Of a stretch of DNA of 9,583 nt, positions 506 to 9,583 are shown one piece after another (within the stretch, counting starts at the first letter, position 1; each line of letters starts with the position of its first letter). The notes under the pieces are model-generated. The model worked only from the letters and a program-made list of their open reading frames with translations. It did not search any database and had not been told where the DNA came from. Made by a program: the position numbers and the translations under genes. Origin of the DNA: a virus (Duplodnaviria; Heunggongvirae; Uroviricota; Caudoviricetes); the IMG/VR virus record IMGVR_UViG_2617271049_000002. The stretch is one strand, 5' to 3'.

Positions 506-2803
506 TTAACCGTCATGCATCATGCTGGCACGGGCGCGCGCACGTTTATCCCGCTCGTATTTTTCGAGCGCATCCTGTAACTGGCGGTCAAGCTGTGTCC
601 CCGGCGCAGTACCACCGGTCAGGCTGATGTGATATTCGTTTTTACTCTGGTCCACATAAGAGCGGCCAGCCGGTGCCGTAACCGGCTGATAAGCCTGATA
701 GCCTGCATAAGAGCTGGTCGCCGGAATATAACCACCGGTGCCATACGTGGCGGCATTAGTCCTTGCGGCGGTCTGGTCAAGTGTGTCTGACTCTTTGTTG
801 ATGACACCGAGTTTTTCCAGTACCCAGTCAATACCACTGCGCAGTTTGTTGAACGCATTAAGCGGCAGCATCAGCGCGTCAGNNNNNNNNNNGACCGGGG
901 CAATCAGGTTTTTAAACCACTGCCACGCGGCCTGTAACTTTTCACCCAGCCAGTCAAACACCGGTTTAAGTGGCGTGAACAGTTCCCCCACCGGCGCAAA
1001 TGCCGCTTTCAGCCCTTCCACCACACCGCCAAAGAATGCGCTGACAGGCTCCCAGTATTTACGGATAAGCAACGCCCCGGCGACAATGGCAGCCACCACG
1101 GCCACAACCGGCCAGCTAATCGCACCGATGGCCGTCATAACGGCACTACCAACCGTCGTGAAGATTGCCCCCATTGCGCCTGCTGCCGCGATAATGGCAT
1201 TGATGCCGGTGATAACCGGCCAGGCTACAAGACCAATGGCACCGATGATGCCAGTAAGCGCCAGCGCGCCACCGACAATGAGGCCGATGGTTGACGCCAG
1301 TGATTTGTTTTTCTGGATCCAGCCGTCGAGTTTTAACACATACTTTGTGGCCGTCTGCGTGAGCTTACGCAGTGCGCCTTCCTGCTGGTCAAACAGGTCA
1401 GTCCCCACCGCCTCATAAGCGGACTGAAACTCCTTAAAGTCACCGCCAAGGTTGTCCTGCATGATATTTACCAGTTCTGCGGTCTTTCCGTCTGAGGCTT
1501 TAAACGCAGCGGTCAGTTTGTCCAGCTTTCCGGTTGACGCGGCAGTCATCAGCACAGCGGCGGCTGAGCTGGCCTCCTCCCCGAAAATGGTTTTCATGTA
1601 TTCGGCCTGCTGGGCAGTACCGAGCCGGTTTTTCTCAAAACTGGCCTGCATTTCTTTCAGAATGGTGAACAACGGACGCATATTTCCCTTTTTGTCCGAG
1701 GTTTTAACGCCAAGCTCTTTGAGTGCATCCCATGCTTTTCCCGTCGGTGCCTGCAGGCGGCTTAACACGGCACGGCTTCCCGTCCCCGCCATTGAACCGG
1801 TAATTTTTGCATCATGCAGCGCCCCGACCATTGCGGCGGTTTCTTCAATGCTGACACCAGCATTTTTTGCCACAGGTGCGGCATAGGTCAGCGCATCGCT
1901 CATGCCATCAAAATCGGCGGCGGTTTTGTTCATCGTCATGGAGAGAACATCCCCGATATGAGCGACCTTATCGTTTGAAAGCTGAAAGGCGGATTTCATC
2001 CCCATCAGCAGGGCGGCGTTTTCTTCCATCGTGCGACGGTTCGCCAGCGCCATATTCAGCGTGACCGGCGTTGCCGCCTGAATGGCATCAACATCCCCAC
2101 CGGCTTTCGCGATAATAATCTGCGCACCGGCTGCATCATCCGCCGAGGCGGCGGTATTGTCGCCGAGCTGGCGCGCCTGCTTGCGTAGTGCAGCCANNNN
2201 NNNNNNCGCCGCAATCCCCACACCGGCAGCGCCTACTGAGGCCATATTTCCGGCCAGTTCCTTTCCGGCCTGATAACGCTGTTTGACTGCGTTAAGTTTT
2301 GCCTGTTGCACACTGACACGCGCCAGCGCGTCGCGCTGACGGTTAAGCTGTGCGGTGGTTTCACTGATACGGTTTTTCAGTCCCTGCTCATCATGTGCAA
2401 GATTGCGGGTATTAATTCCCACAGCGGCCAGTTCCCGCTGCTGGCGTTTAACGGAATCCGTCAGGCGGTTATATTTCGCCTGTAAGTCCTCCGCCGCTCG
2501 CTTTGCGGATTCCAGCACTTTCGCCTGAGCACGGGTCGGACGTTCGGTGTTTTTAAACTGTGTGGCAAGGGCTTCGGCTTCCTGCCGTGCCTTTTCAAGT
2601 GCATGACCAGTCACGGCAAGCTGTGCACTGGTCTTGCGGAATCCCTCAATACGGGATGCGTGACCGTTCAGCTCGCGCAGTGATTTTTGTGTTTCCCGGA
2701 TATCCCCCGACAGCGACCTGCTCGCTGTGCGGATGGATTTAAACGGGCGGGATGCCTGGTCAACAGCCCTGAGCAATACCTGTAATTTTACATTGTTACT
2801 CAT
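506..2803 (-). CDS. T: Tail tape measure protein gpT, 765 aa as given (contains two masked 10-N runs)
   Basis: Long ORF directly after E/E'. It has a coiled-coil-rich N-terminal part (…LQAKYNRLTDSVKRQQRELAAVG…) and a long Gly/Ala/Ile-rich hydrophobic segment (…LIVGGALALTGIIGAIGLVAWPVITGINAIIAAAGAMGAIF…) typical of tape measure proteins. Its ATG (2803..2801) overlaps the E' stop in the motif AATGAGTAA. The frame is maintained across both N runs. Confidence 0.9.
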   Translation of the reverse strand: MSNNVKLQVLLRAVDQASRPFKSIRTASRSLSGDIRETQKSLRELNGHASRIEGFRKTSAQLAVTGHALEKARQEAEALATQFKNTERPTRAQAKVLESAKRAAEDLQAKYNRLTDSVKRQQRELAAVGINTRNLAHDEQGLKNRISETTAQLNRQRDALARVSVQQAKLNAVKQRYQAGKELAGNMASVGAAGVGIAAXXXXAALRKQARQLGDNTAASADDAAGAQIIIAKAGGDVDAIQAATPVTLNMALANRRTMEENAALLMGMKSAFQLSNDKVAHIGDVLSMTMNKTAADFDGMSDALTYAAPVAKNAGVSIEETAAMVGALHDAKITGSMAGTGSRAVLSRLQAPTGKAWDALKELGVKTSDKKGNMRPLFTILKEMQASFEKNRLGTAQQAEYMKTIFGEEASSAAAVLMTAASTGKLDKLTAAFKASDGKTAELVNIMQDNLGGDFKEFQSAYEAVGTDLFDQQEGALRKLTQTATKYVLKLDGWIQKNKSLASTIGLIVGGALALTGIIGAIGLVAWPVITGINAIIAAAGAMGAIFTTVGSAVMTAIGAISWPVVAVVAAIVAGALLIRKYWEPVSAFFGGVVEGLKAAFAPVGELFTPLKPVFDWLGEKLQAAWQWFKNLIAPVXXXXDALMLPLNAFNKLRSGIDWVLEKLGVINKESDTLDQTAARTNAATYGTGGYIPATSSYAGYQAYQPVTAPAGRSYVDQSKNEYHISLTGGTAPGTQLDRQLQDALEKYERDKRARARASMMHDG
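883..892. other. Run of 10 N (masked or unresolved bases) inside gene T
   Basis: Literal nnnnnnnnnn in the sequence. The T reading frame continues unbroken on both sides (XXXX in the translation). Confidence 1.
2197..2206. other. Run of 10 N (masked or unresolved bases) inside gene T
   Basis: Literal nnnnnnnnnn in the sequence. The T reading frame continues unbroken on both sides. Confidence 1.
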
Positions 2804-5024: not shown

Positions 5025-5095
5025 GTGCAACTATTTTCTGTTGTGCAGAGCATGAGACGCTATTTGACCTGGCTGGTCAGGGGATGAAACAACAG
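5025..5095 (-). promoter_or_regulatory. Putative late promoter region for the FI operon (P_F equivalent), with a dyad TGACC-N5-GGTCA at 5065..5079
   Basis: In P2 the FI-FII-E-T-U-D operon has its own Ogr-activated late promoter. Here a 15-bp dyad (plus strand tgacctggctggtca, 5065..5079) lies about 65-80 nt upstream of the FI ATG, and a weak -10-like gaaaat lies at 5038..5033. It does not match the textbook TGT-N12-ACA perfectly, so this call is positional only. Confidence 0.3.
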
Positions 5096-5123
5096 ATAAA
5101 GAAAATGCGGGCAATTCGCCCGC
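5095..5123 (-). terminator. Rho-independent terminator closing the island (or H-G read-through) transcript
   Basis: An all-G:C 6-bp stem gcgggc/gcccgc (5107..5112 pairs with 5118..5123) has a 5-nt loop. On the minus strand it is followed directly by ATTTTCTTTATCTGTT. It lies between the stop of the second island gene and the FI promoter region. Confidence 0.55.
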
Positions 5124-5184
5124 CTGTCCTGATTTGTACTCACTCATTTTCCGCCTGACAATTTACATAGCCCAAATGCTATCA

Positions 5185-5219
5185 AATCTGACAGTCTGCT
5201 TTGAGCGAGGAGCGGAAGT
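5185..5219. repeat. Left arm of a 35-bp imperfect inverted repeat flanking the AT-rich island
   Basis: aatctgacagtc-tgctttgagcg-aggagcggaagt compared with the reverse complement of 7458..7492, aatctgacagtc-cgctctgtgcc-aggagcggaagt. The two 12-nt blocks are identical and the middle block matches 7/11, giving 31/35 overall. Confidence 0.75.
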
Positions 5220-5276
5220 TCGCTTTGCTCCCGTGTTAATAGTGGGTATTAATCAATCGGGAGCATAACCATAGAA

Positions 5277-6434
5277 TTAGCTGTTTGATTCAGCATCAGC
5301 AACTTTTCTATATTTAGTAAGCAATTCTACTTTACGTAATTCAATCTCACGCATAATGTTTGATTGAATATCATGTATTTTAGAGGGCGACGCACCTTTA
5401 ACCTTTATATTTATAAAGGTAATGCACAATTCAGGATTAACAGGGGTTTTTCTTCCATATTCACTAAACTCGTATGCAACCTTACATTCACCTGAATAGG
5501 ATTCATAGCTAATTGTGTAACTTGCGACAACCTTAGTAACACGTACATACGGGTGTATGTGTTTCCATTTGATAGATATTATATTCTCTAGATTTCCTTT
5601 GACTCTATACTGGTCAATATCTTTTTCGAGAAAATTAGTCACAGCATCTGATTGTTTTTCGTAACCAGTAGAATGATCCGGATTAAAATGAACATCATCT
5701 ATTTTTTGATGGTAGAATAAGTATCCAATATGAAGGGATGCTAATTCATTAAGGAATTTTACTCTGTTTTCATTTTCAAAATCATCCATCAGAACTCTAC
5801 CTCGATGAGGCGAATGTTCAATTATATTATTTCTTTCCAAATGCTCCTCTATCAAGGTTATGACATTTTCAGCTATTTCTTTAGTTTCCGGAGATGTGTG
5901 ATTTAGTTTTACATTCATTAAAAGCTGGGAGTTACCAGTGATGCCATTAACGTCTTTCTTGATTTCCACAGATCCTTTAAAGAACTTCTCAGTTATATAC
6001 CAATCATCTAGAATATCTGTCTTGCAAATTTCGAACTCCATTATTACGGAATTATTACTTCTACCATCTAGAGATGTAAAATCGCTAAAATCTGATATCT
6101 CATAATTAATGTAACCATTTTTTGTGATTTTACTAACATCTACAAACCCACTAACTTCACCAAGCAAATCAACATCTTGCTTAAGATCAAAATTCCTGAA
6201 ATTTACTTTATCTAATTTTTCCTTTGTTTTAATACTGCTTAGTAAATCATAAGATTCATCAGGGCTTAGTAAAGAGGTGATCAAGTTTGGAACTGTGCCT
6301 GATTTTTCAGACACTCCGCAAAAAAGCCCTCTTTCTTTAAGTAGATTATTGATCATTGTAGAGCTACAGTTCTGCTGGCTCACAAGATTTTTCAGTTCAT
6401 CTCCGGAGGGGATGAAATCAATATCATTTTTCAT
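5277..6434 (-). CDS. Island gene B: hypothetical protein, 385 aa, no recognisable domain (candidate partner in a defence system)
   Basis: Long uninterrupted ORF in AT-rich DNA. The preferred start is the ATG at 6434..6432 (MKNDIDFIPSGDELKNLV…), because it is preceded by AGGAG at 6447..6443 with an 8-nt spacer. That start overlaps the stop of gene A by 11 nt. The track's longer start at 6470 has no RBS and would overlap gene A by 47 nt. I found no Walker A, HxH, HEPN (Rx4-6H), TIR or helicase motif. Confidence 0.8.
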   Translation of the reverse strand: MKNDIDFIPSGDELKNLVSQQNCSSTMINNLLKERGLFCGVSEKSGTVPNLITSLLSPDESYDLLSSIKTKEKLDKVNFRNFDLKQDVDLLGEVSGFVDVSKITKNGYINYEISDFSDFTSLDGRSNNSVIMEFEICKTDILDDWYITEKFFKGSVEIKKDVNGITGNSQLLMNVKLNHTSPETKEIAENVITLIEEHLERNNIIEHSPHRGRVLMDDFENENRVKFLNELASLHIGYLFYHQKIDDVHFNPDHSTGYEKQSDAVTNFLEKDIDQYRVKGNLENIISIKWKHIHPYVRVTKVVASYTISYESYSGECKVAYEFSEYGRKTPVNPELCITFINIKVKGASPSKIHDIQSNIMREIELRKVELLTKYRKVADAESNS

Positions 6435-7350
6435 CAGAAATGCTCCTGAAGGTGCTATTATAAGAATCAACGATTAATGTAATATCTCCAACGACATCCT
6501 CAGAGCCATCTTCAAAATTTTGCGCCATTTTGACTTCATCAACTGAAGGGGAGTCTGTGAGTTTATTATATTTATTGAAATAAATCTCATAATGATTTGC
6601 GAAATCGGAACAAAGCTTTCTAGCTAATTTATACACCAACCCTAGTGATTCTTTACTGTAATTAAAATCGCAAAGTAATATAAATTTTCGCCCATTATCA
6701 TCAGGCACAGAAATGGGAATTATTGGAGAGGTAATGTATTCAACAGGCATTATTTTAGAATGTCTTGTTGAAGATGAAACATTTAAGGTAGTGTTAAGAC
6801 AGAAAAAAGATATTTCACCATGCTTTTTCTTGATAAAGCTTATCGAGTTGTATAAAAATTTTGCTCTTGCGTTATCAACGAGATGTATGGCGTTGAACTT
6901 GAGGGTAGAATCGATTCTATGATTGATGATTTCACCTTTAATATTATCATTTGAATCGCTTTCATCATTATTTAAATAAAACAAAACCCCAATATCTTCT
7001 TTTCTTGAACTACCTGGAAATTGTCTTGTTATGGTTCTTTTAAACTGGGATTTTGAATAACATTCAATGGTGTGTGCCAAGTCTTTGAAATGTGAGCGAA
7101 AAGTAGTTTTGACTTTATCGTAAGGTACTGATGAATACTTTGCAGAAACAACAACGCTTACTAATGATTGTTTTTGAAGCATAGAGTTGTAGACATACAA
7201 AGCATCTATTCCATGTGTCTTTTTAGCATGTTCTCCCACGCAGCAATCTAATTGCTTGTTACTACATAGGTTTTTCCATCCAAAGAGTTTCAGAAAGTCA
7301 TTGACTATCTCTTCGCCCACCTCGCCGACATATTTTGAGAACTCGCCCAT
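6424..7350 (-). CDS. Island gene A: hypothetical protein, 308 aa, with an N-terminal PD-(D/E)xK-like (Mrr/DUF4365-like) putative nuclease core
   Basis: Long ORF in AT-rich DNA. The N-terminus reads GEVGEEIVNDFLKLFGW (acidic helix ending in G-W), then HGID49ALYVY (beta-strand Asp), then SLVSVVVS69AK71Y (hydrophobic strand followed by S-x-K). This is the order and spacing of restriction-endonuclease-fold cores (E…D…(E/Q/S)xK). The C-terminal ~220 aa are unassigned. Confidence 0.8.
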   Translation of the reverse strand: MGEFSKYVGEVGEEIVNDFLKLFGWKNLCSNKQLDCCVGEHAKKTHGIDALYVYNSMLQKQSLVSVVVSAKYSSVPYDKVKTTFRSHFKDLAHTIECYSKSQFKRTITRQFPGSSRKEDIGVLFYLNNDESDSNDNIKGEIINHRIDSTLKFNAIHLVDNARAKFLYNSISFIKKKHGEISFFCLNTTLNVSSSTRHSKIMPVEYITSPIIPISVPDDNGRKFILLCDFNYSKESLGLVYKLARKLCSDFANHYEIYFNKYNKLTDSPSVDEVKMAQNFEDGSEDVVGDITLIVDSYNSTFRSISDEK

Positions 7351-7385
7351 TACCTAAACCGCCGTCTATTAAATTATAATTCTTT

Positions 7386-7414
7386 ATAGTATTAATCTTA
7401 TTCACATTTATCAA
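7386..7414 (-). promoter_or_regulatory. Putative sigma70 promoter of the island operon (TTGATA-N17-TACTAT)
   Basis: Minus strand reads TTGATA (7414..7409), a 17-nt spacer, then TACTAT (7391..7386), about 36 nt upstream of the gene A ATG. A perfect TATAAT also occurs at 7378..7373 but has no good -35. AT-rich DNA produces such matches by chance. Confidence 0.45.
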
Positions 7415-7457
7415 CATTAGGAGTAAGCAAGACGAATTAGTAGTGAGTCATCAATCG

Positions 7458-7492
7458 ACTTCCGCTCCTGGCACAGAGCGGACTGTCAGATT
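7458..7492. repeat. Right arm of the 35-bp imperfect inverted repeat flanking the AT-rich island
   Basis: acttccgctcct-ggcacagagcg-gactgtcagatt is the reverse complement (31/35) of 5185..5219. It overlaps a local hairpin with a perfect 9-bp stem, ggcacagag (7470..7478) pairing with ctctgtgcc (7501..7509). Confidence 0.75.
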
Positions 7493-7532
7493 AGGCTTTA
7501 CTCTGTGCCATAGATATGTAAGCTAATACAAC

Positions 7533-8060
7533 TTATTGCGGCATTTCCGGCCATTCAGGATTTGCAGGATCCACACGACTGACCAGAACGCTGTAGCGTT
7601 CCCATGATTCCAGTCGGCTACGCTCCTCATCTGTTGCCATGTTCAGTCTGACCGCGCGCTCCAGCGGCAAAATCACGGATTCAGCATCTGCAAGAAGTCT
7701 GGCTTTCTGAATTTCTGCCTGCTGCTGTAATTCCTCTGCCGTATAAATGCGTTTAATCACTTTGCCGTCCTTAAACATCCAGTTCCCTGAAATGTCCGCC
7801 CGTCGGTTAGCAGTAATATCCGCCACTTCAACAACACTTAATCCATCCGGTCTGATAGCTGTCACATCCTTTTCCACATAGTGGATGATATTATCTTTGT
7901 CGTACGCTATTTTTATCGTGTCATCAGCAAAATACTTTTGTTCTTCGTACCAGTTCTTACCATCTTCTGAAAAAAACCAGACAACATCAAAGTCCTTTGT
8001 CAATTGATATTGTTCAACCGTTTTTGGATTACCCGCCGTAATATTTTTTAAATGCTGCAT
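7533..8060 (-). CDS. G: Tail fibre assembly protein / chaperone gpG (Tfa family), 175 aa
   Basis: 175-aa ORF 3 nt downstream of the tail fibre gene, with the same size and position as P2 G. The C-terminal …[27 protein letters not shown] is typical of Tfa-family chaperones. Confidence 0.88.
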
Positions 8061-8063
8061 AAA

Positions 8064-9583
8064 TTATACCTGCGCCACGTTATACCATGTCCCGTTAATG
8101 TATTTCTGCACCGGTCTGTAATATACGCCACCAATGTTATCGGCAGAGTTTGAGCCGGTATCCTGAACAATAATGCCGGTATATACGCAACCTGACGGAG
8201 CCTGATGCGTCCATGTAGTACCATTATTTGCTGGTTTATATGTAGATGCACCGCCCAGCCGCATGTCTCTCACATAACGTGAATCTGATTCAGCTTTGGT
8301 GTATGCACCAACATCTCCCGCTGAGGGTTTATGAGCAGTTGTATATAGTTGCGCCCATCCAGACCAGTTAGCATCTGTGGTATCTCGTCGGGAGCGAATA
8401 TATGCCGGAGCATGAGCACCGCTGGTTCCACTCCAGCCAATAAGTAACTCACCCTCTCCTACTGCGGTTACGCCAGTGAGATGAAGCACATTACCATAGG
8501 CTGTTGGGTAGCCATTGTTGTATGCCTCATACATCTGAATACCTGGTGTCCCCTTTACGCTCCCACCTAATGCAGTAACACGGTTTCTGGATACCAGTGT
8601 ATTAATATTTATATCAGCAGAGCCATCAAATCTGACACCATTAATATTTCTTGCGTTCGCTAACTTCGTTGCTGTTGCAGCATTTCCCGAAAGGCTGGAA
8701 ATAAATGGATGTGAGCAGTAATAACCGCGCCCATTTTTAAAATCCAGAATAGCCTGTGCGTTCGTGCTTTCTGTAGCAGGATTAGTTGCCCCCCACTTAT
8801 ATGTCGTTTGACCGACGACATAATCCTCTGTCGGAACAATAACCGTTAGCCCTTCCTCTGCAAGAATTTGCACAGGGAAAGCTCTGGCTTCAACATAAAA
8901 AACACTACATACATCATCATCTTTCAGGCTTGTAACAATGGAATGGATTGAACGCTCATTAGTCTGATACGTCCAGAAATAACCTGCCGCATATGAACCA
9001 CGATCAGTCCAGCCTCCGGGCATAACCATGCCATTAAACTCGCAGTTATTCATTACATAATCGCTGTTATAACAACCAGTGGAAATAACGACGCGGGATG
9101 CCATTTCTCCTGAAAGGCTGGCAGCACGGCGAAAGATAACGGGATACCACTTCCCGGCAACGACATTTGCAGGGGCTGCAAACGAATACTTTCGCATTCC
9201 CTTTTTCTTATCCACTTCACCTTTGCTGTAAACATTAATGTTACTCAGGAAGCGTCCTTTATCAGGAATATCCGCACCGTTCTGATCTTTCTGAAGACGT
9301 TTTTCAGCATTGTCATAGGCAGACTTCACCGCTTTTGGTGTTGCGGCCTGCGTTTCAGAATCACTGTTGGTGGCGCTACTGAGCTGGACAAGGCCTTTCC
9401 GCGCGGTGGTGGCATCCTGTGCAGTGTATTTCCCGTTAGCAAGGTCATACGCTGTCTTAACCGCCTTTGGCGTTGCCGCAAGCGTTTCAGAATCGCTGTT
9501 GGTGACGCTACTGAGCTGGACAAGACCTTTTCGCGCTGTGGTGGCATCCTGTGCAGTGTATTTCCCGTTAGCAAGGTCATACG
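8064..9583 (-). CDS. H: Tail fibre protein gpH, C-terminal ~506 codons (5' end lies beyond the window)
   Basis: The track starts this ORF at a GTG (9329), but the same frame stays open up to the window edge. My translation of 9581..9330 is YDLANGKYTAQDATTARKGLVQLSSVTNSDSETLAATPKAVKTA repeated twice and running into …VKSAYDNAEKRLQKD. This is the conserved tail-fibre repeat motif shared by P2 H and related fibres. The gene is followed by the chaperone gene G. Confidence 0.9.
   Translation of the reverse strand, partial: YDLANGKYTAQDATTARKGLVQLSSVTNSDSETLAATPKAVKTAYDLANGKYTAQDATTARKGLVQLSSATNSDSETQAATPKAVKSAYDNAEKRLQKDQNGADIPDKGRFLSNINVYSKGEVDKKKGMRKYSFAAPANVVAGKWYPVIFRRAASLSGEMASRVVISTGCYNSDYVMNNCEFNGMVMPGGWTDRGSYAAGYFWTYQTNERSIHSIVTSLKDDDVCSVFYVEARAFPVQILAEEGLTVIVPTEDYVVGQTTYKWGATNPATESTNAQAILDFKNGRGYYCSHPFISSLSGNAATATKLANARNINGVRFDGSADININTLVSRNRVTALGGSVKGTPGIQMYEAYNNGYPTAYGNVLHLTGVTAVGEGELLIGWSGTSGAHAPAYIRSRRDTTDANWSGWAQLYTTAHKPSAGDVGAYTKAESDSRYVRDMRLGGASTYKPANNGTTWTHQAPSGCVYTGIIVQDTGSNSADNIGGVYYRPVQKYINGTWYNVAQV
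9318..9583 (-). repeat. Two tandem 132-nt (44-aa) near-identical repeats inside H encoding the conserved KGLVQLSS-TNSDSET-AATPKAVK-AYD fibre motif
   Basis: Copy 1 is 9581..9450 and copy 2 is 9449..9318, both beginning TATGACCTTGCTAACGGGAAATACACTGCACAGGATGCC. I saw only a handful of substitutions. A degenerate third unit starts at 9317 (YDNAEKRL…). Confidence 0.9.

Follow-up and report, generated by a model that had tools for sequence, protein, structure and literature searches.

Phage morons, a concept credited to Juhala and Hendrix, are said to be genes that lie between late genes and carry a promoter and a terminator of their own. Lysogenic-conversion cassettes of the P2 Z region were described by Nilsson, Karlsson and Haggard-Ljungquist (2004, Mol Biol Evol 21:1; AJ512676, AJ512677, AJ512680); a repeat-specific recombination mechanism was reportedly outlined in 2004. 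Exchangeable defence cargo of P2 and P4 prophages has since been surveyed in hotspot studies (Rousset et al. 2022, PMC9122126; Nucleic Acids Res 2026, PMC13586616), the latter of which does not mention GAPS4. The first description of the GAPS4 anti-phage system came from Gamma-Mobile-Trio islands (bioRxiv 10.1101/2023.03.28.534373), and its published mechanism is that of a DNase triggered by DNA breaks. Its representative GAPS4-RiKo was cloned with 182 bp of "native promoter" and 235 bp of "native terminator" (plasmid pGAPS4-RiKo; Mahata et al., bioRxiv 10.1101/2025.09.07.674715), and conferred up to 10^6-fold protection against phage from a low-copy pSC101 plasmid in a surrogate, P2-free E. 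coli. The need for both genes was shown with the Vibrio homologue.

Genomic setting of the island

The window (the whole analysed stretch of 9,583 nucleotides; IMG/VR virus record IMGVR_UViG_2617271049_000002) represents late-region DNA of a P2-like (Peduovirus) prophage and comprises the Z/fun cargo site between tail genes G and FI. The framing features are:

7533..8060, minus strand: gene G (tail fibre assembly; Pfam Caudo_TAP, E = 3e-34), last gene of the V-W-J-I-H-G late operon of P2
7458..7532, minus strand: left inverted repeat of the P2 Z-region, with inner arm 7458..7492; matched by the 'left inverted repeat' feature in AJ512680 and AJ512677
5127..5220, minus strand: right inverted repeat of the P2 Z-region, with inner arm 5185..5219; matched by the 'right inverted repeat' feature in AJ512680 and AJ512677
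5069..5095, minus strand: counterpart of the P_F activator (Ogr) binding site of P2, projected from features of NC_001895
3811..5001, minus strand: gene FI (tail sheath; Pfam Phage_sheath_1, Phage_sheath_1C and Gp18_domIII_N; PGAP), first gene of the F late operon

In a genome that shares the island stretch of the window at 100% identity, PGAP likewise annotates G as a tail fiber assembly protein. The P_F site and the P_F transcription start (projected at about 5027..5025) were obtained by aligning NC_001895 pairwise with the window and transferring its features 17555..17583 and 17626..17628.

Aligning the window with 10 P2-like phages whose cargo is different delimits the cargo-specific DNA to about 5221..7457. 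An earlier note on this DNA had set the island at 5095-7414; these limits require correction, the terminator included there being located outside the cargo in the phage backbone. The island has a GC content of 31-36%, compared to about 55-58% on the FI side, and its genes are co-oriented with the late genes. P2-like relatives harbour other cargo at this site, which is empty in phage P37. Its location in a P2-like phage between G and FI, together with the left and right inverted repeats on its flanks, makes the island a Z/fun-region cassette. Searching the whole window against Rfam yielded no family.

Identity of the cargo genes

The island encodes the already published two-gene anti-phage system GAPS4, in the order gapS4a-gapS4b:

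6424..7350, minus strand: gapS4a, PD-(D/E)xK-type nuclease subunit (NCBIfam NF047933, 291.3 bits versus a cut-off of 270, E = 8e-87; PGAP WP_028132563.1)
5277..6434, minus strand: gapS4b (NCBIfam NF047934, 323.9 bits versus a cut-off of 300; PGAP WP_028132564.1)

PADLOC-DB 2023 and Pfam returned a weak Hp1 match and nothing else for the two cargo proteins; it was NCBIfam that provided this identity. Three E. coli genomes contain the island at 100% identity, with its genes annotated as gapS4a and gapS4b, and both protein accessions are those of the tested GAPS4-RiKo, for which defence by the GapS4a/GapS4b pair was reported (bioRxiv 10.1101/2025.09.07.674715). The proposal that the cargo serves superinfection defence, made in the earlier note from the letters alone, is thus borne out. 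Near its N-terminus, GapS4a displays in translation a non-canonical PD-(D/E)xK motif, H46-G47-I48-D49 ... S69-A70-K71 (HGxD ... SxK), and the D49A exchange in GAPS4a-RiKo abolishes defence (Mahata et al., bioRxiv 10.1101/2025.09.07.674715). The two genes are arranged in tandem, the PGAP-assigned ATG start of gapS4b at 6434 resulting in an 11-nt overlap with gapS4a, which suggests a translationally coupled operon.

Correspondence extends to the DNA level, in that window positions 5042..7532 represent the insert of pGAPS4-RiKo base for base, with the cloning primers matching 7532..7503 and 5042..5066 without a mismatch. Since this fragment contains neither gene G nor P_V and nevertheless protects E. 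coli devoid of P2, Ogr-independent expression of the cargo has already been demonstrated, unless expression from the plasmid is due to read-through from the vector (pC-0_v5, Addgene 124425), which could contribute.

Predicted promoter of the cargo genes

Expression of the island may in principle start upstream, from the late promoter P_V, or within the cassette. In the region between G and gapS4a (7351..7532), no terminator-like site was found on the sense strand, the hairpins present there lacking a U-tract. The following promoter-related features are located in front of gapS4a:

7386..7414, minus strand: predicted cassette-borne sigma-70 promoter (-35 hexamer TTGATA at 7414..7409, 17-nt spacer, -10 hexamer TACTAT at 7391..7386; 9/12 consensus matches)
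7373..7378, minus strand: TATAAT hexamer, probably not a functional -10 element (2/6 columns invariant)

The TTGATA-N17-TACTAT motif is present exactly where the earlier note had placed it, with 9 of 12 consensus positions matched, and transcription would be predicted to start near 7379..7382. As a bare motif it is not above chance: the window contains 12 promoter-like sites compared to 13.5 +/- 3.7 in shuffled sequences, shuffling the 182-nt intergenic region produces a site with at least 9/12 matches in 30% of cases, and the coding region alone has six sense-strand matches that are equal or better. As a general observation, 9/12 matches are common in AT-rich DNA.

It is conservation that lifts the promoter motif, like the terminator motif described below, above chance. 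Among five cassettes from different genomic contexts, which amount to about four independent lineages as the cassettes L022 and L025 are near-identical, 23 of the 29 columns of the -35/spacer/-10 block are invariant and the spacer length is fixed, while the flanking non-coding DNA has diverged (10/43 invariant columns upstream, 13/35 downstream). A scan of genome contigs for the cassette added one further species only, so this footprint covers few lineages. Homology to three diverged cassettes residing in non-P2 or rearranged contexts (L022, L025 and L026) begins at 7415, and that to four cassettes with other genomic surroundings at or upstream of this position. Since the conserved block thus starts at the -35 hexamer in unrelated contexts, the predicted promoter belongs to the cassette. 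Phylogenetic footprinting narrows it down to TTGA(T/A)A-N17-TAC(T/C)AT. The earlier assumption of an own, Ogr-independent promoter for the cargo is therefore supported by two findings, i.e., a block travelling with the cassette and the function of 5042..7532 on a plasmid in cells without P2.

Two alternative readings have to be considered here. The functional -10 element could be TATAAT (7378..7373), accompanied by a weak or absent -35 element, in which case TTGATA-N17-TACTAT would not be a promoter. The earlier note rightly pointed out this perfect consensus hexamer, which is embedded in an AT-rich stretch and, combined with its best -35 partner ATAAGA at a distance of 17 nt, likewise scores 9/12. 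It is, however, not conserved: only two of its six columns are invariant, the homologues read TATAAC, TATAAC, TACAAC and CCTAAT, with the critical final T lost in three of the four, and a TG extension is absent. TATAAT was hence rejected as the -10 element, and its being the functional one is judged improbable. Even less credible is an island devoid of any working promoter, expressed only after induction, when the Ogr-dependent V-W-J-I-H-G transcript would include it at its 3' end. Cargo and late genes do share their orientation, no intrinsic terminator intervenes between G and gapS4a, and the promoter motif by itself is no better than chance; yet protection of P2-free E. coli from a low-copy plasmid by a fragment without G or P_V, and a conserved promoter block that marks the start of homology in contexts lacking P2 late genes, argue against this reading. 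With a cassette-borne sigma-70 promoter Ogr is not needed, so that GAPS4 can be made in a lysogen, and we infer its expression in the prophage state. The lysogen transcriptomics of Owen et al. 2020 contains nothing on this locus.

Predicted terminator and 3' end of the cargo

Two hairpins follow the gapS4b stop codon:

5227..5264, minus strand: cargo-borne hairpin GCTCCCG ... CGGGAGC just past the gapS4b stop codon (minimum-free-energy fold)
5097..5123, minus strand: predicted intrinsic terminator of the phage backbone (stem-loop 5123..5107, T-tract 5106..5097), top-ranked terminator-like site of the window

The distal element has the form of an intrinsic terminator. Its hairpin GCGGGCG-AAT-TGCCCGC (5123..5107) consists of 7 pairs, 6 of them G-C, with a stem folding at about -13 kcal/mol, and is followed by ATTTTCTTTA, in the transcript AUUUUCUUUA, with 7 U in 9 nt. 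Again, the bare motif is not above chance, the window containing 10 terminator-like sites versus 10.1 +/- 3.1 in shuffles. Hairpin and T-tract are, though, retained in all 14 other P2-like sequences compared, irrespective of cargo or cargo orientation, and the stem is maintained with differing sequences and registers, e.g., in EC46 and P37. In the empty-site phage P37, the hairpin is positioned 5 nt past the G stop codon and represents the sole terminator-like element after G. Judging from these alignments, the hairpin is part of the P2 backbone and not of the island, and probably marks where the H-G (V) operon ended ancestrally. The terminator reported in the earlier note at 5123..5095 is accordingly present as placed, but its assignment to the island is refuted by the backbone alignments and the empty site. 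The element (5097..5123) also lies inside the 235-bp fragment published as 'native terminator'.

The proximal, cargo-borne hairpin has a counterpart in the cassette L016 and, with altered stem bases, in L025. It lacks a U-tract and was not called as a terminator, and was thus dismissed as the terminator of the cassette; it may act as a stabiliser of the 3' end. In diverged copies, homology of the cassette stops at the gapS4b stop codon. A factor-independent terminator of its own was therefore not found for the cargo, the sole canonical one being that of the phage backbone.

The backbone hairpin might instead be mainly a structural part of the regulatory region upstream of P_F and terminate inefficiently, such that transcripts of the cargo and the V operon would enter the F operon. 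Its T-tract ends only 1-2 nt from the projected Ogr-binding site of P_F, and the P2 record annotates the V-operon terminator elsewhere, inside the fun(Z) cargo, leaving this hairpin unannotated. In addition, the copy in the window is weakened by a C-to-A exchange at 5106, unique among the 15 sequences compared, which abolishes one G-C pair; the 51-nt segment folds at -15 kcal/mol in the window versus about -20 in most others. Against this stand the canonical build, with 7 U among the 9 nt behind a G+C-rich stem, the preservation of the stem despite changed sequence and register, the lack of any other terminator-like element behind G in the empty-site phage, and the use of this region as native terminator in the published clone. 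We thus consider such a predominantly structural role unlikely and favour the hairpin as a functional terminator.

Probable late read-through and proposed transcription model

The view that the island is insulated from the late operons, expressed in the earlier note, does not hold on the 5' side, where an intrinsic terminator is absent between G and gapS4a. Late read-through is hence not visibly blocked, although Rho-dependent termination may occur in this interval, and late transcription starting at P_V probably extends across the island. Since nothing recognisable stops H-G late transcription, the island would probably also be part of the V-operon transcript during lytic growth.

Taken together, the model we regard as probable comprises GAPS4 in the Z/fun site with its own sigma-70 promoter, a terminator supplied by the phage backbone and probable late read-through. 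Host sigma-70 RNA polymerase would transcribe gapS4a-gapS4b from TTGATA-N17-TACTAT (7414..7386); the cargo transcript would continue across the right inverted repeat for about 150 nt until it stops at the phage hairpin and T-tract (5123..5097). The latter would end everything arriving from the G side, i.e., cargo transcripts as well as V-operon read-through, just before the activator site of P_F. Such late read-through would raise the question how a P2-like phage tolerates an over-expressed DNA-break-triggered DNase in its own lytic cycle.

Inverted repeats and possible mobility

The 35-nt inner arms of the two repeats (7458..7492 and 5185..5219) are 89% complementary. Ten P2-like phages with other cargo retain the left repeat segment, which contains a conserved hairpin, GGCACAGAG-N21-CTCTGTGCC, without a T-tract; no terminator-like site was detected in this segment. 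Of 5426 E. coli genomes, 1268 contain the right repeat, the median number of places being one. On this ground, an origin of the inverted repeats from a dispersed enterobacterial repeat of the ERIC/IRU type was rejected. The full-length example of the right repeat that was inspected lies in a P2-like prophage.

Some observations point beyond the P2 site. A Silvania chromosome carries the same GAPS4 cassette after the hyc operon, together with the inner ~30 nt of both arms, a non-P2 island of E. coli has a homologous 36-nt repeat pair around an unrelated SEC-C-domain gene, and a P2-like phage with neither repeats nor cargo exists. One may consider that left repeat, cargo and right repeat form a discrete mobile cassette carrier, rather than simply a P2 hotspot, which we hold to be a minority possibility. 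Repeat-specific recombination could in this way shuttle defence cassettes among phages, islands and chromosomes. More speculatively, the arms could pair in late read-through RNA (-51 kcal/mol) to form an RNase III-type duplex; if so, the duplex would separate read-through RNA from the cargo mRNA initiated at the cassette promoter, which is without the left arm.

Comparison with known systems

With P2 fun(Z) and, as far as their records go, the Z-region cassettes AJ512676, AJ512677 and AJ512680, the island shares the G-FI site and both inverted repeats, and cargo ORFs of the cassette records are likewise annotated with their own -35/-10 signals. Co-orientation with the late genes distinguishes the GAPS4 cargo from fun(Z), which lies antisense with a convergent terminator annotated beside it. 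As in the studies on P2/P4 defence hotspots, the defence cargo is prophage-borne, can be exchanged and works on pSC101 plasmids from native promoters; these studies, however, are centred on the cos-proximal A-Q (old/tin) hotspot (PMC9122126; PMC13586616).

The island resembles a moron in its position between conserved late genes, absence from relatives, deviant composition and own sigma-70 promoter, the latter indicated by a block that travels with the cassette and by the sufficiency of 182 bp on a plasmid, with a predicted start. In contrast to a moron, it uses a pre-existing terminator of the backbone and none of its own.

The closest system is GAPS4-RiKo, identical in protein accessions and, over window positions 5042..7532, in the cloned fragment (bioRxiv 10.1101/2025.09.07.674715). 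GAPS4 and its ability to function from its native flanks had been published before, as had the hotspot and the repeats on either side of it. In the GAPS4-RiKo paper, however, the word prophage is never used, and promoter and terminator are unmapped. Beyond it, the present analysis places GAPS4-RiKo as prophage cargo at the Z/fun site of P2, pins the predicted promoter by footprinting and assigns it to the cassette, and attributes the "native terminator" to the phage's own backbone, by which the island would be open to late read-through.

Genetic organization of the GAPS4 island

The window corresponds to the late region of a Peduovirus (P2-like) prophage; its genes, all on the minus strand, follow the order H, G (Caudo_TAP), two cargo genes, FI (sheath), FII, E/E', T and U. 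GC content is 31–36 % in the cargo versus ~55–58 % on the FI side. The cargo products score above the NCBIfam cut-offs for GapS4a (291 versus 270 bits) and GapS4b (324 versus 300 bits), and three complete E. coli genomes hold the island at 100 % identity, where the PGAP names are gapS4a (WP_028132563.1) and gapS4b (WP_028132564.1). All sequence tests for GAPS4, as well as all those for a P2 Z-region cassette, gave a positive result. The gapS4a gene starts with ATG at 7350 (minus strand) and gapS4b most likely with ATG at 6434, giving an 11-nt overlap. A Shine-Dalgarno-like AGG preceding gapS4a (7351..7370) is weak, closely spaced and not conserved in the homologues; its weakness may hold a potentially toxic DNase at low level. 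Outside the island, tandem 132-nt (44-aa) repeats are present in the 5' part of the tail fibre gene H (9306..9583), which runs off the window; they align with near-identical prophages in several shifted registers, so that the copy number may vary. Two 10-base N runs (masked sequence; 883..892 and 2197..2206) lie within the tape-measure gene T and appear as XXXX in its translation.

Ten P2-like phages with different cargo, in one or the other orientation (P2 fun(Z), NUDIX plus HAD hydrolases, various hypotheticals), were aligned with the region. Backbone homology extends from G to 7458..7469 on one side and from 5216..5226 into FI on the other. Since homology breaks off at these limits, the cargo-specific DNA spans ~5221..7457. 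The innermost backbone on both sides forms a 35-nt inverted repeat (7458..7492 versus 5185..5219, 89 % complementary), the arms of which fall in repeats that two GenBank records of the Z region, AJ512677 and AJ512680, call "left" and "right inverted repeat". Both records also annotate −35/−10 signals for "putative lysogenic conversion" ORFs. In read-through RNA from G, the two arms could pair as a 35-bp duplex (−51 kcal/mol); it is pure speculation that this duplex serves as a conceivable RNase III substrate missing from the mRNA of the cassette promoter.

Occurrence of the cassette and its repeats outside P2

The cassette recurs in four other genomic contexts:

L016: Silvania chromosome, downstream of hycE-hycI
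L022: phage, downstream of umuDC-like genes
L025: contig with the order resolvase-umuDC-GAPS4-SRAP
L026: contig with a PLD nuclease, a DUF1173 and a RES-domain gene

In Silvania hatchlandensis H19S6 (L016 3863..6158, equivalent to window 7488..5194), the cassette shares 94 % nucleotide identity and is located on the chromosome directly downstream of the formate hydrogenlyase genes hycE-hycI, outside any P2 prophage. Since homology takes in the inner ~30 nt of both inverted-repeat arms, with neither G nor FI, the repeat-bounded unit seems to move as a module. Repeats homologous to the Z-region arms also occur elsewhere: in E. coli P393-F10, a 36-nt inverted pair (L019 5010..5045 and 6502..6537) brackets a single SEC-C-domain gene within a non-P2 island with RepL and H-NS-like genes, and in a derivative of EPEC E2348/69 a single inner-arm match (L018 5001..5033) is located next to an island with type I restriction-modification and DarT. 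Such repeat-bounded cassettes outside P2 fit the idea of site-specific recombination raised in the title of a 2004 paper. In L022 (1088..2853) and L025 (700..2465), the cassette directly follows umuD/umuC-like genes (Peptidase_S24 and IMS polymerase), intriguing neighbours given that GAPS4 reportedly senses DNA breaks.

Likely promoter of gapS4ab

The primers TM712F and TM712R of the plasmid pGAPS4-RiKo match window positions 7532..7503 and 5042..5066 with their insert-specific parts (zero mismatches); the published clone therefore corresponds to 5042..7532. In surrogate E. coli, it protects by as much as six orders of magnitude, an effect abolished by the D49A exchange (Mahata et al., bioRxiv 10.1101/2025.09.07.674715). 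Since this segment lacks G, P_V (promoter of the Ogr-dependent V-W-J-I-H-G late operon) and the start of P_F (promoter of the F late operon) yet protects, an Ogr-independent promoter inside 7351..7532 is effectively demonstrated, barring vector read-through. Solely late expression of gapS4ab is thus very improbable, even if late transcripts reach the island (see below).

An earlier note had placed TTGATA (7414..7409), 17 nt, TACTAT (7391..7386) and a further TATAAT (7378..7373) on the minus strand, and these positions are correct. As plain motif matches, promoter and terminator show no excess over chance: the window contains 12 promoter-like sites versus 13.5 ± 3.7 in dinucleotide shuffles, shuffling the 182-nt intergenic region yields a match of at least 9/12 in 30 % of cases, and the AT-rich coding sequence contains six sense-strand matches that are equal or better. 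In the three diverged cassette copies (79–82 % nucleotide identity), however, homology opens at 7415, one base ahead of the −35 hexamer, and closes at the gapS4b stop codon. The −35/spacer/−10 block is invariant in 23 of 29 columns across five sequences, with fixed spacer length and the consensus TTGA(T/A)A-N17-TAC(T/C)AT, compared to 10/43 columns upstream, 13/35 between −10 and ATG, and 25/30 in the first coding bases. TATAAT reads TATAAC (twice), TACAAC and CCTAAT in the four homologues; although it is a perfect −10 consensus in the window, the critical last T is gone in three of them, rendering its function as −10 unlikely. Of the two candidates proposed, TTGATA-N17-TACTAT is therefore likely the promoter, based on block conservation, the onset of homology and the loss of TATAAT, and it moves together with the cassette.

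Predicted terminator and late transcription

The hairpin GCGGGCG-AAT-TGCCCGC (5123..5107, minus strand), followed by ATTTTCTTTA, is located downstream of gapS4b as the earlier note described. Terminator-like sites number 10 in the window versus 10.1 ± 3.1 in shuffles. Assignment of the hairpin to the island is not supported: hairpin and T-tract belong to the backbone and recur in each of the 14 other P2-like sequences compared (51-nt segment folding at −11 to −21 kcal/mol; EC46 and P37 differ in stem sequence or register). In Yersinia phage P37, the empty Z site (L015 503..635) consists of the G stop, 5 nt, the hairpin AGGCGGGCTTATTGTCCGC with TTTTTCTTT, and then P_F, without inverted repeats or cargo, representing either the ancestral state or precise loss. 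P2 annotation projected onto the window places the P_F activator-binding site at 5095..5069, abutting the T-tract, and the P_F start at 5027..5025. Backbone conservation, adjacency to the Ogr site and the empty-site phage indicate that the H-G operon probably ended at this hairpin ancestrally. Its position next to P_F could suit a regulatory element rather than an efficient terminator; this is improbable. The hairpin ranks as top terminator call in three other phages with co-oriented cargo. The cassette itself contributes only a hairpin without U-tract (5227..5264).

Directly past the terminator stem, position 5106 is A here versus C in all 14 other sequences; one closing G-C pair is lost, and the 51-nt segment folds at ~−15 versus ~−20 kcal/mol in most others. 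The V-operon terminator annotated in the P2 reference (NC_001895 15639..15666; L012 640..667) lies within the cargo, beside the 3' end of antisense fun(Z); the record carries no annotation for the conserved hairpin that precedes P_F in the backbone.

The proposed insulation from the late operons is not borne out on the upstream side. Since no terminator-like site was found on the sense strand between G and gapS4a, and the conserved left-repeat hairpins lack a U-tract, late transcription from P_V is, as to intrinsic terminators, probably not stopped ahead of the island and would enter it. Taken together, a model is probable in which a cassette-borne sigma-70 promoter would drive gapS4ab in the lysogen, the transcript would end at the shared backbone terminator, and late read-through would reach the island from upstream.

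Comparison with known systems

The island shares three of four defining traits with a moron and differs in the fourth, a terminator of its own. Known defence sites include the Z/fun locus and a hotspot among P2 tail genes, and cargo of P2 and P4 routinely functions from native promoters when placed on pSC101 plasmids (PMC9122126; PMC13586616). In view of this and of the GAPS4 and Z-region assignments, the finding as a whole is already known. The word prophage is absent from the paper on GAPS4-RiKo (Mahata et al., bioRxiv 10.1101/2025.09.07.674715); new here are the prophage setting of that system, the precise promoter and the reassigned terminator.
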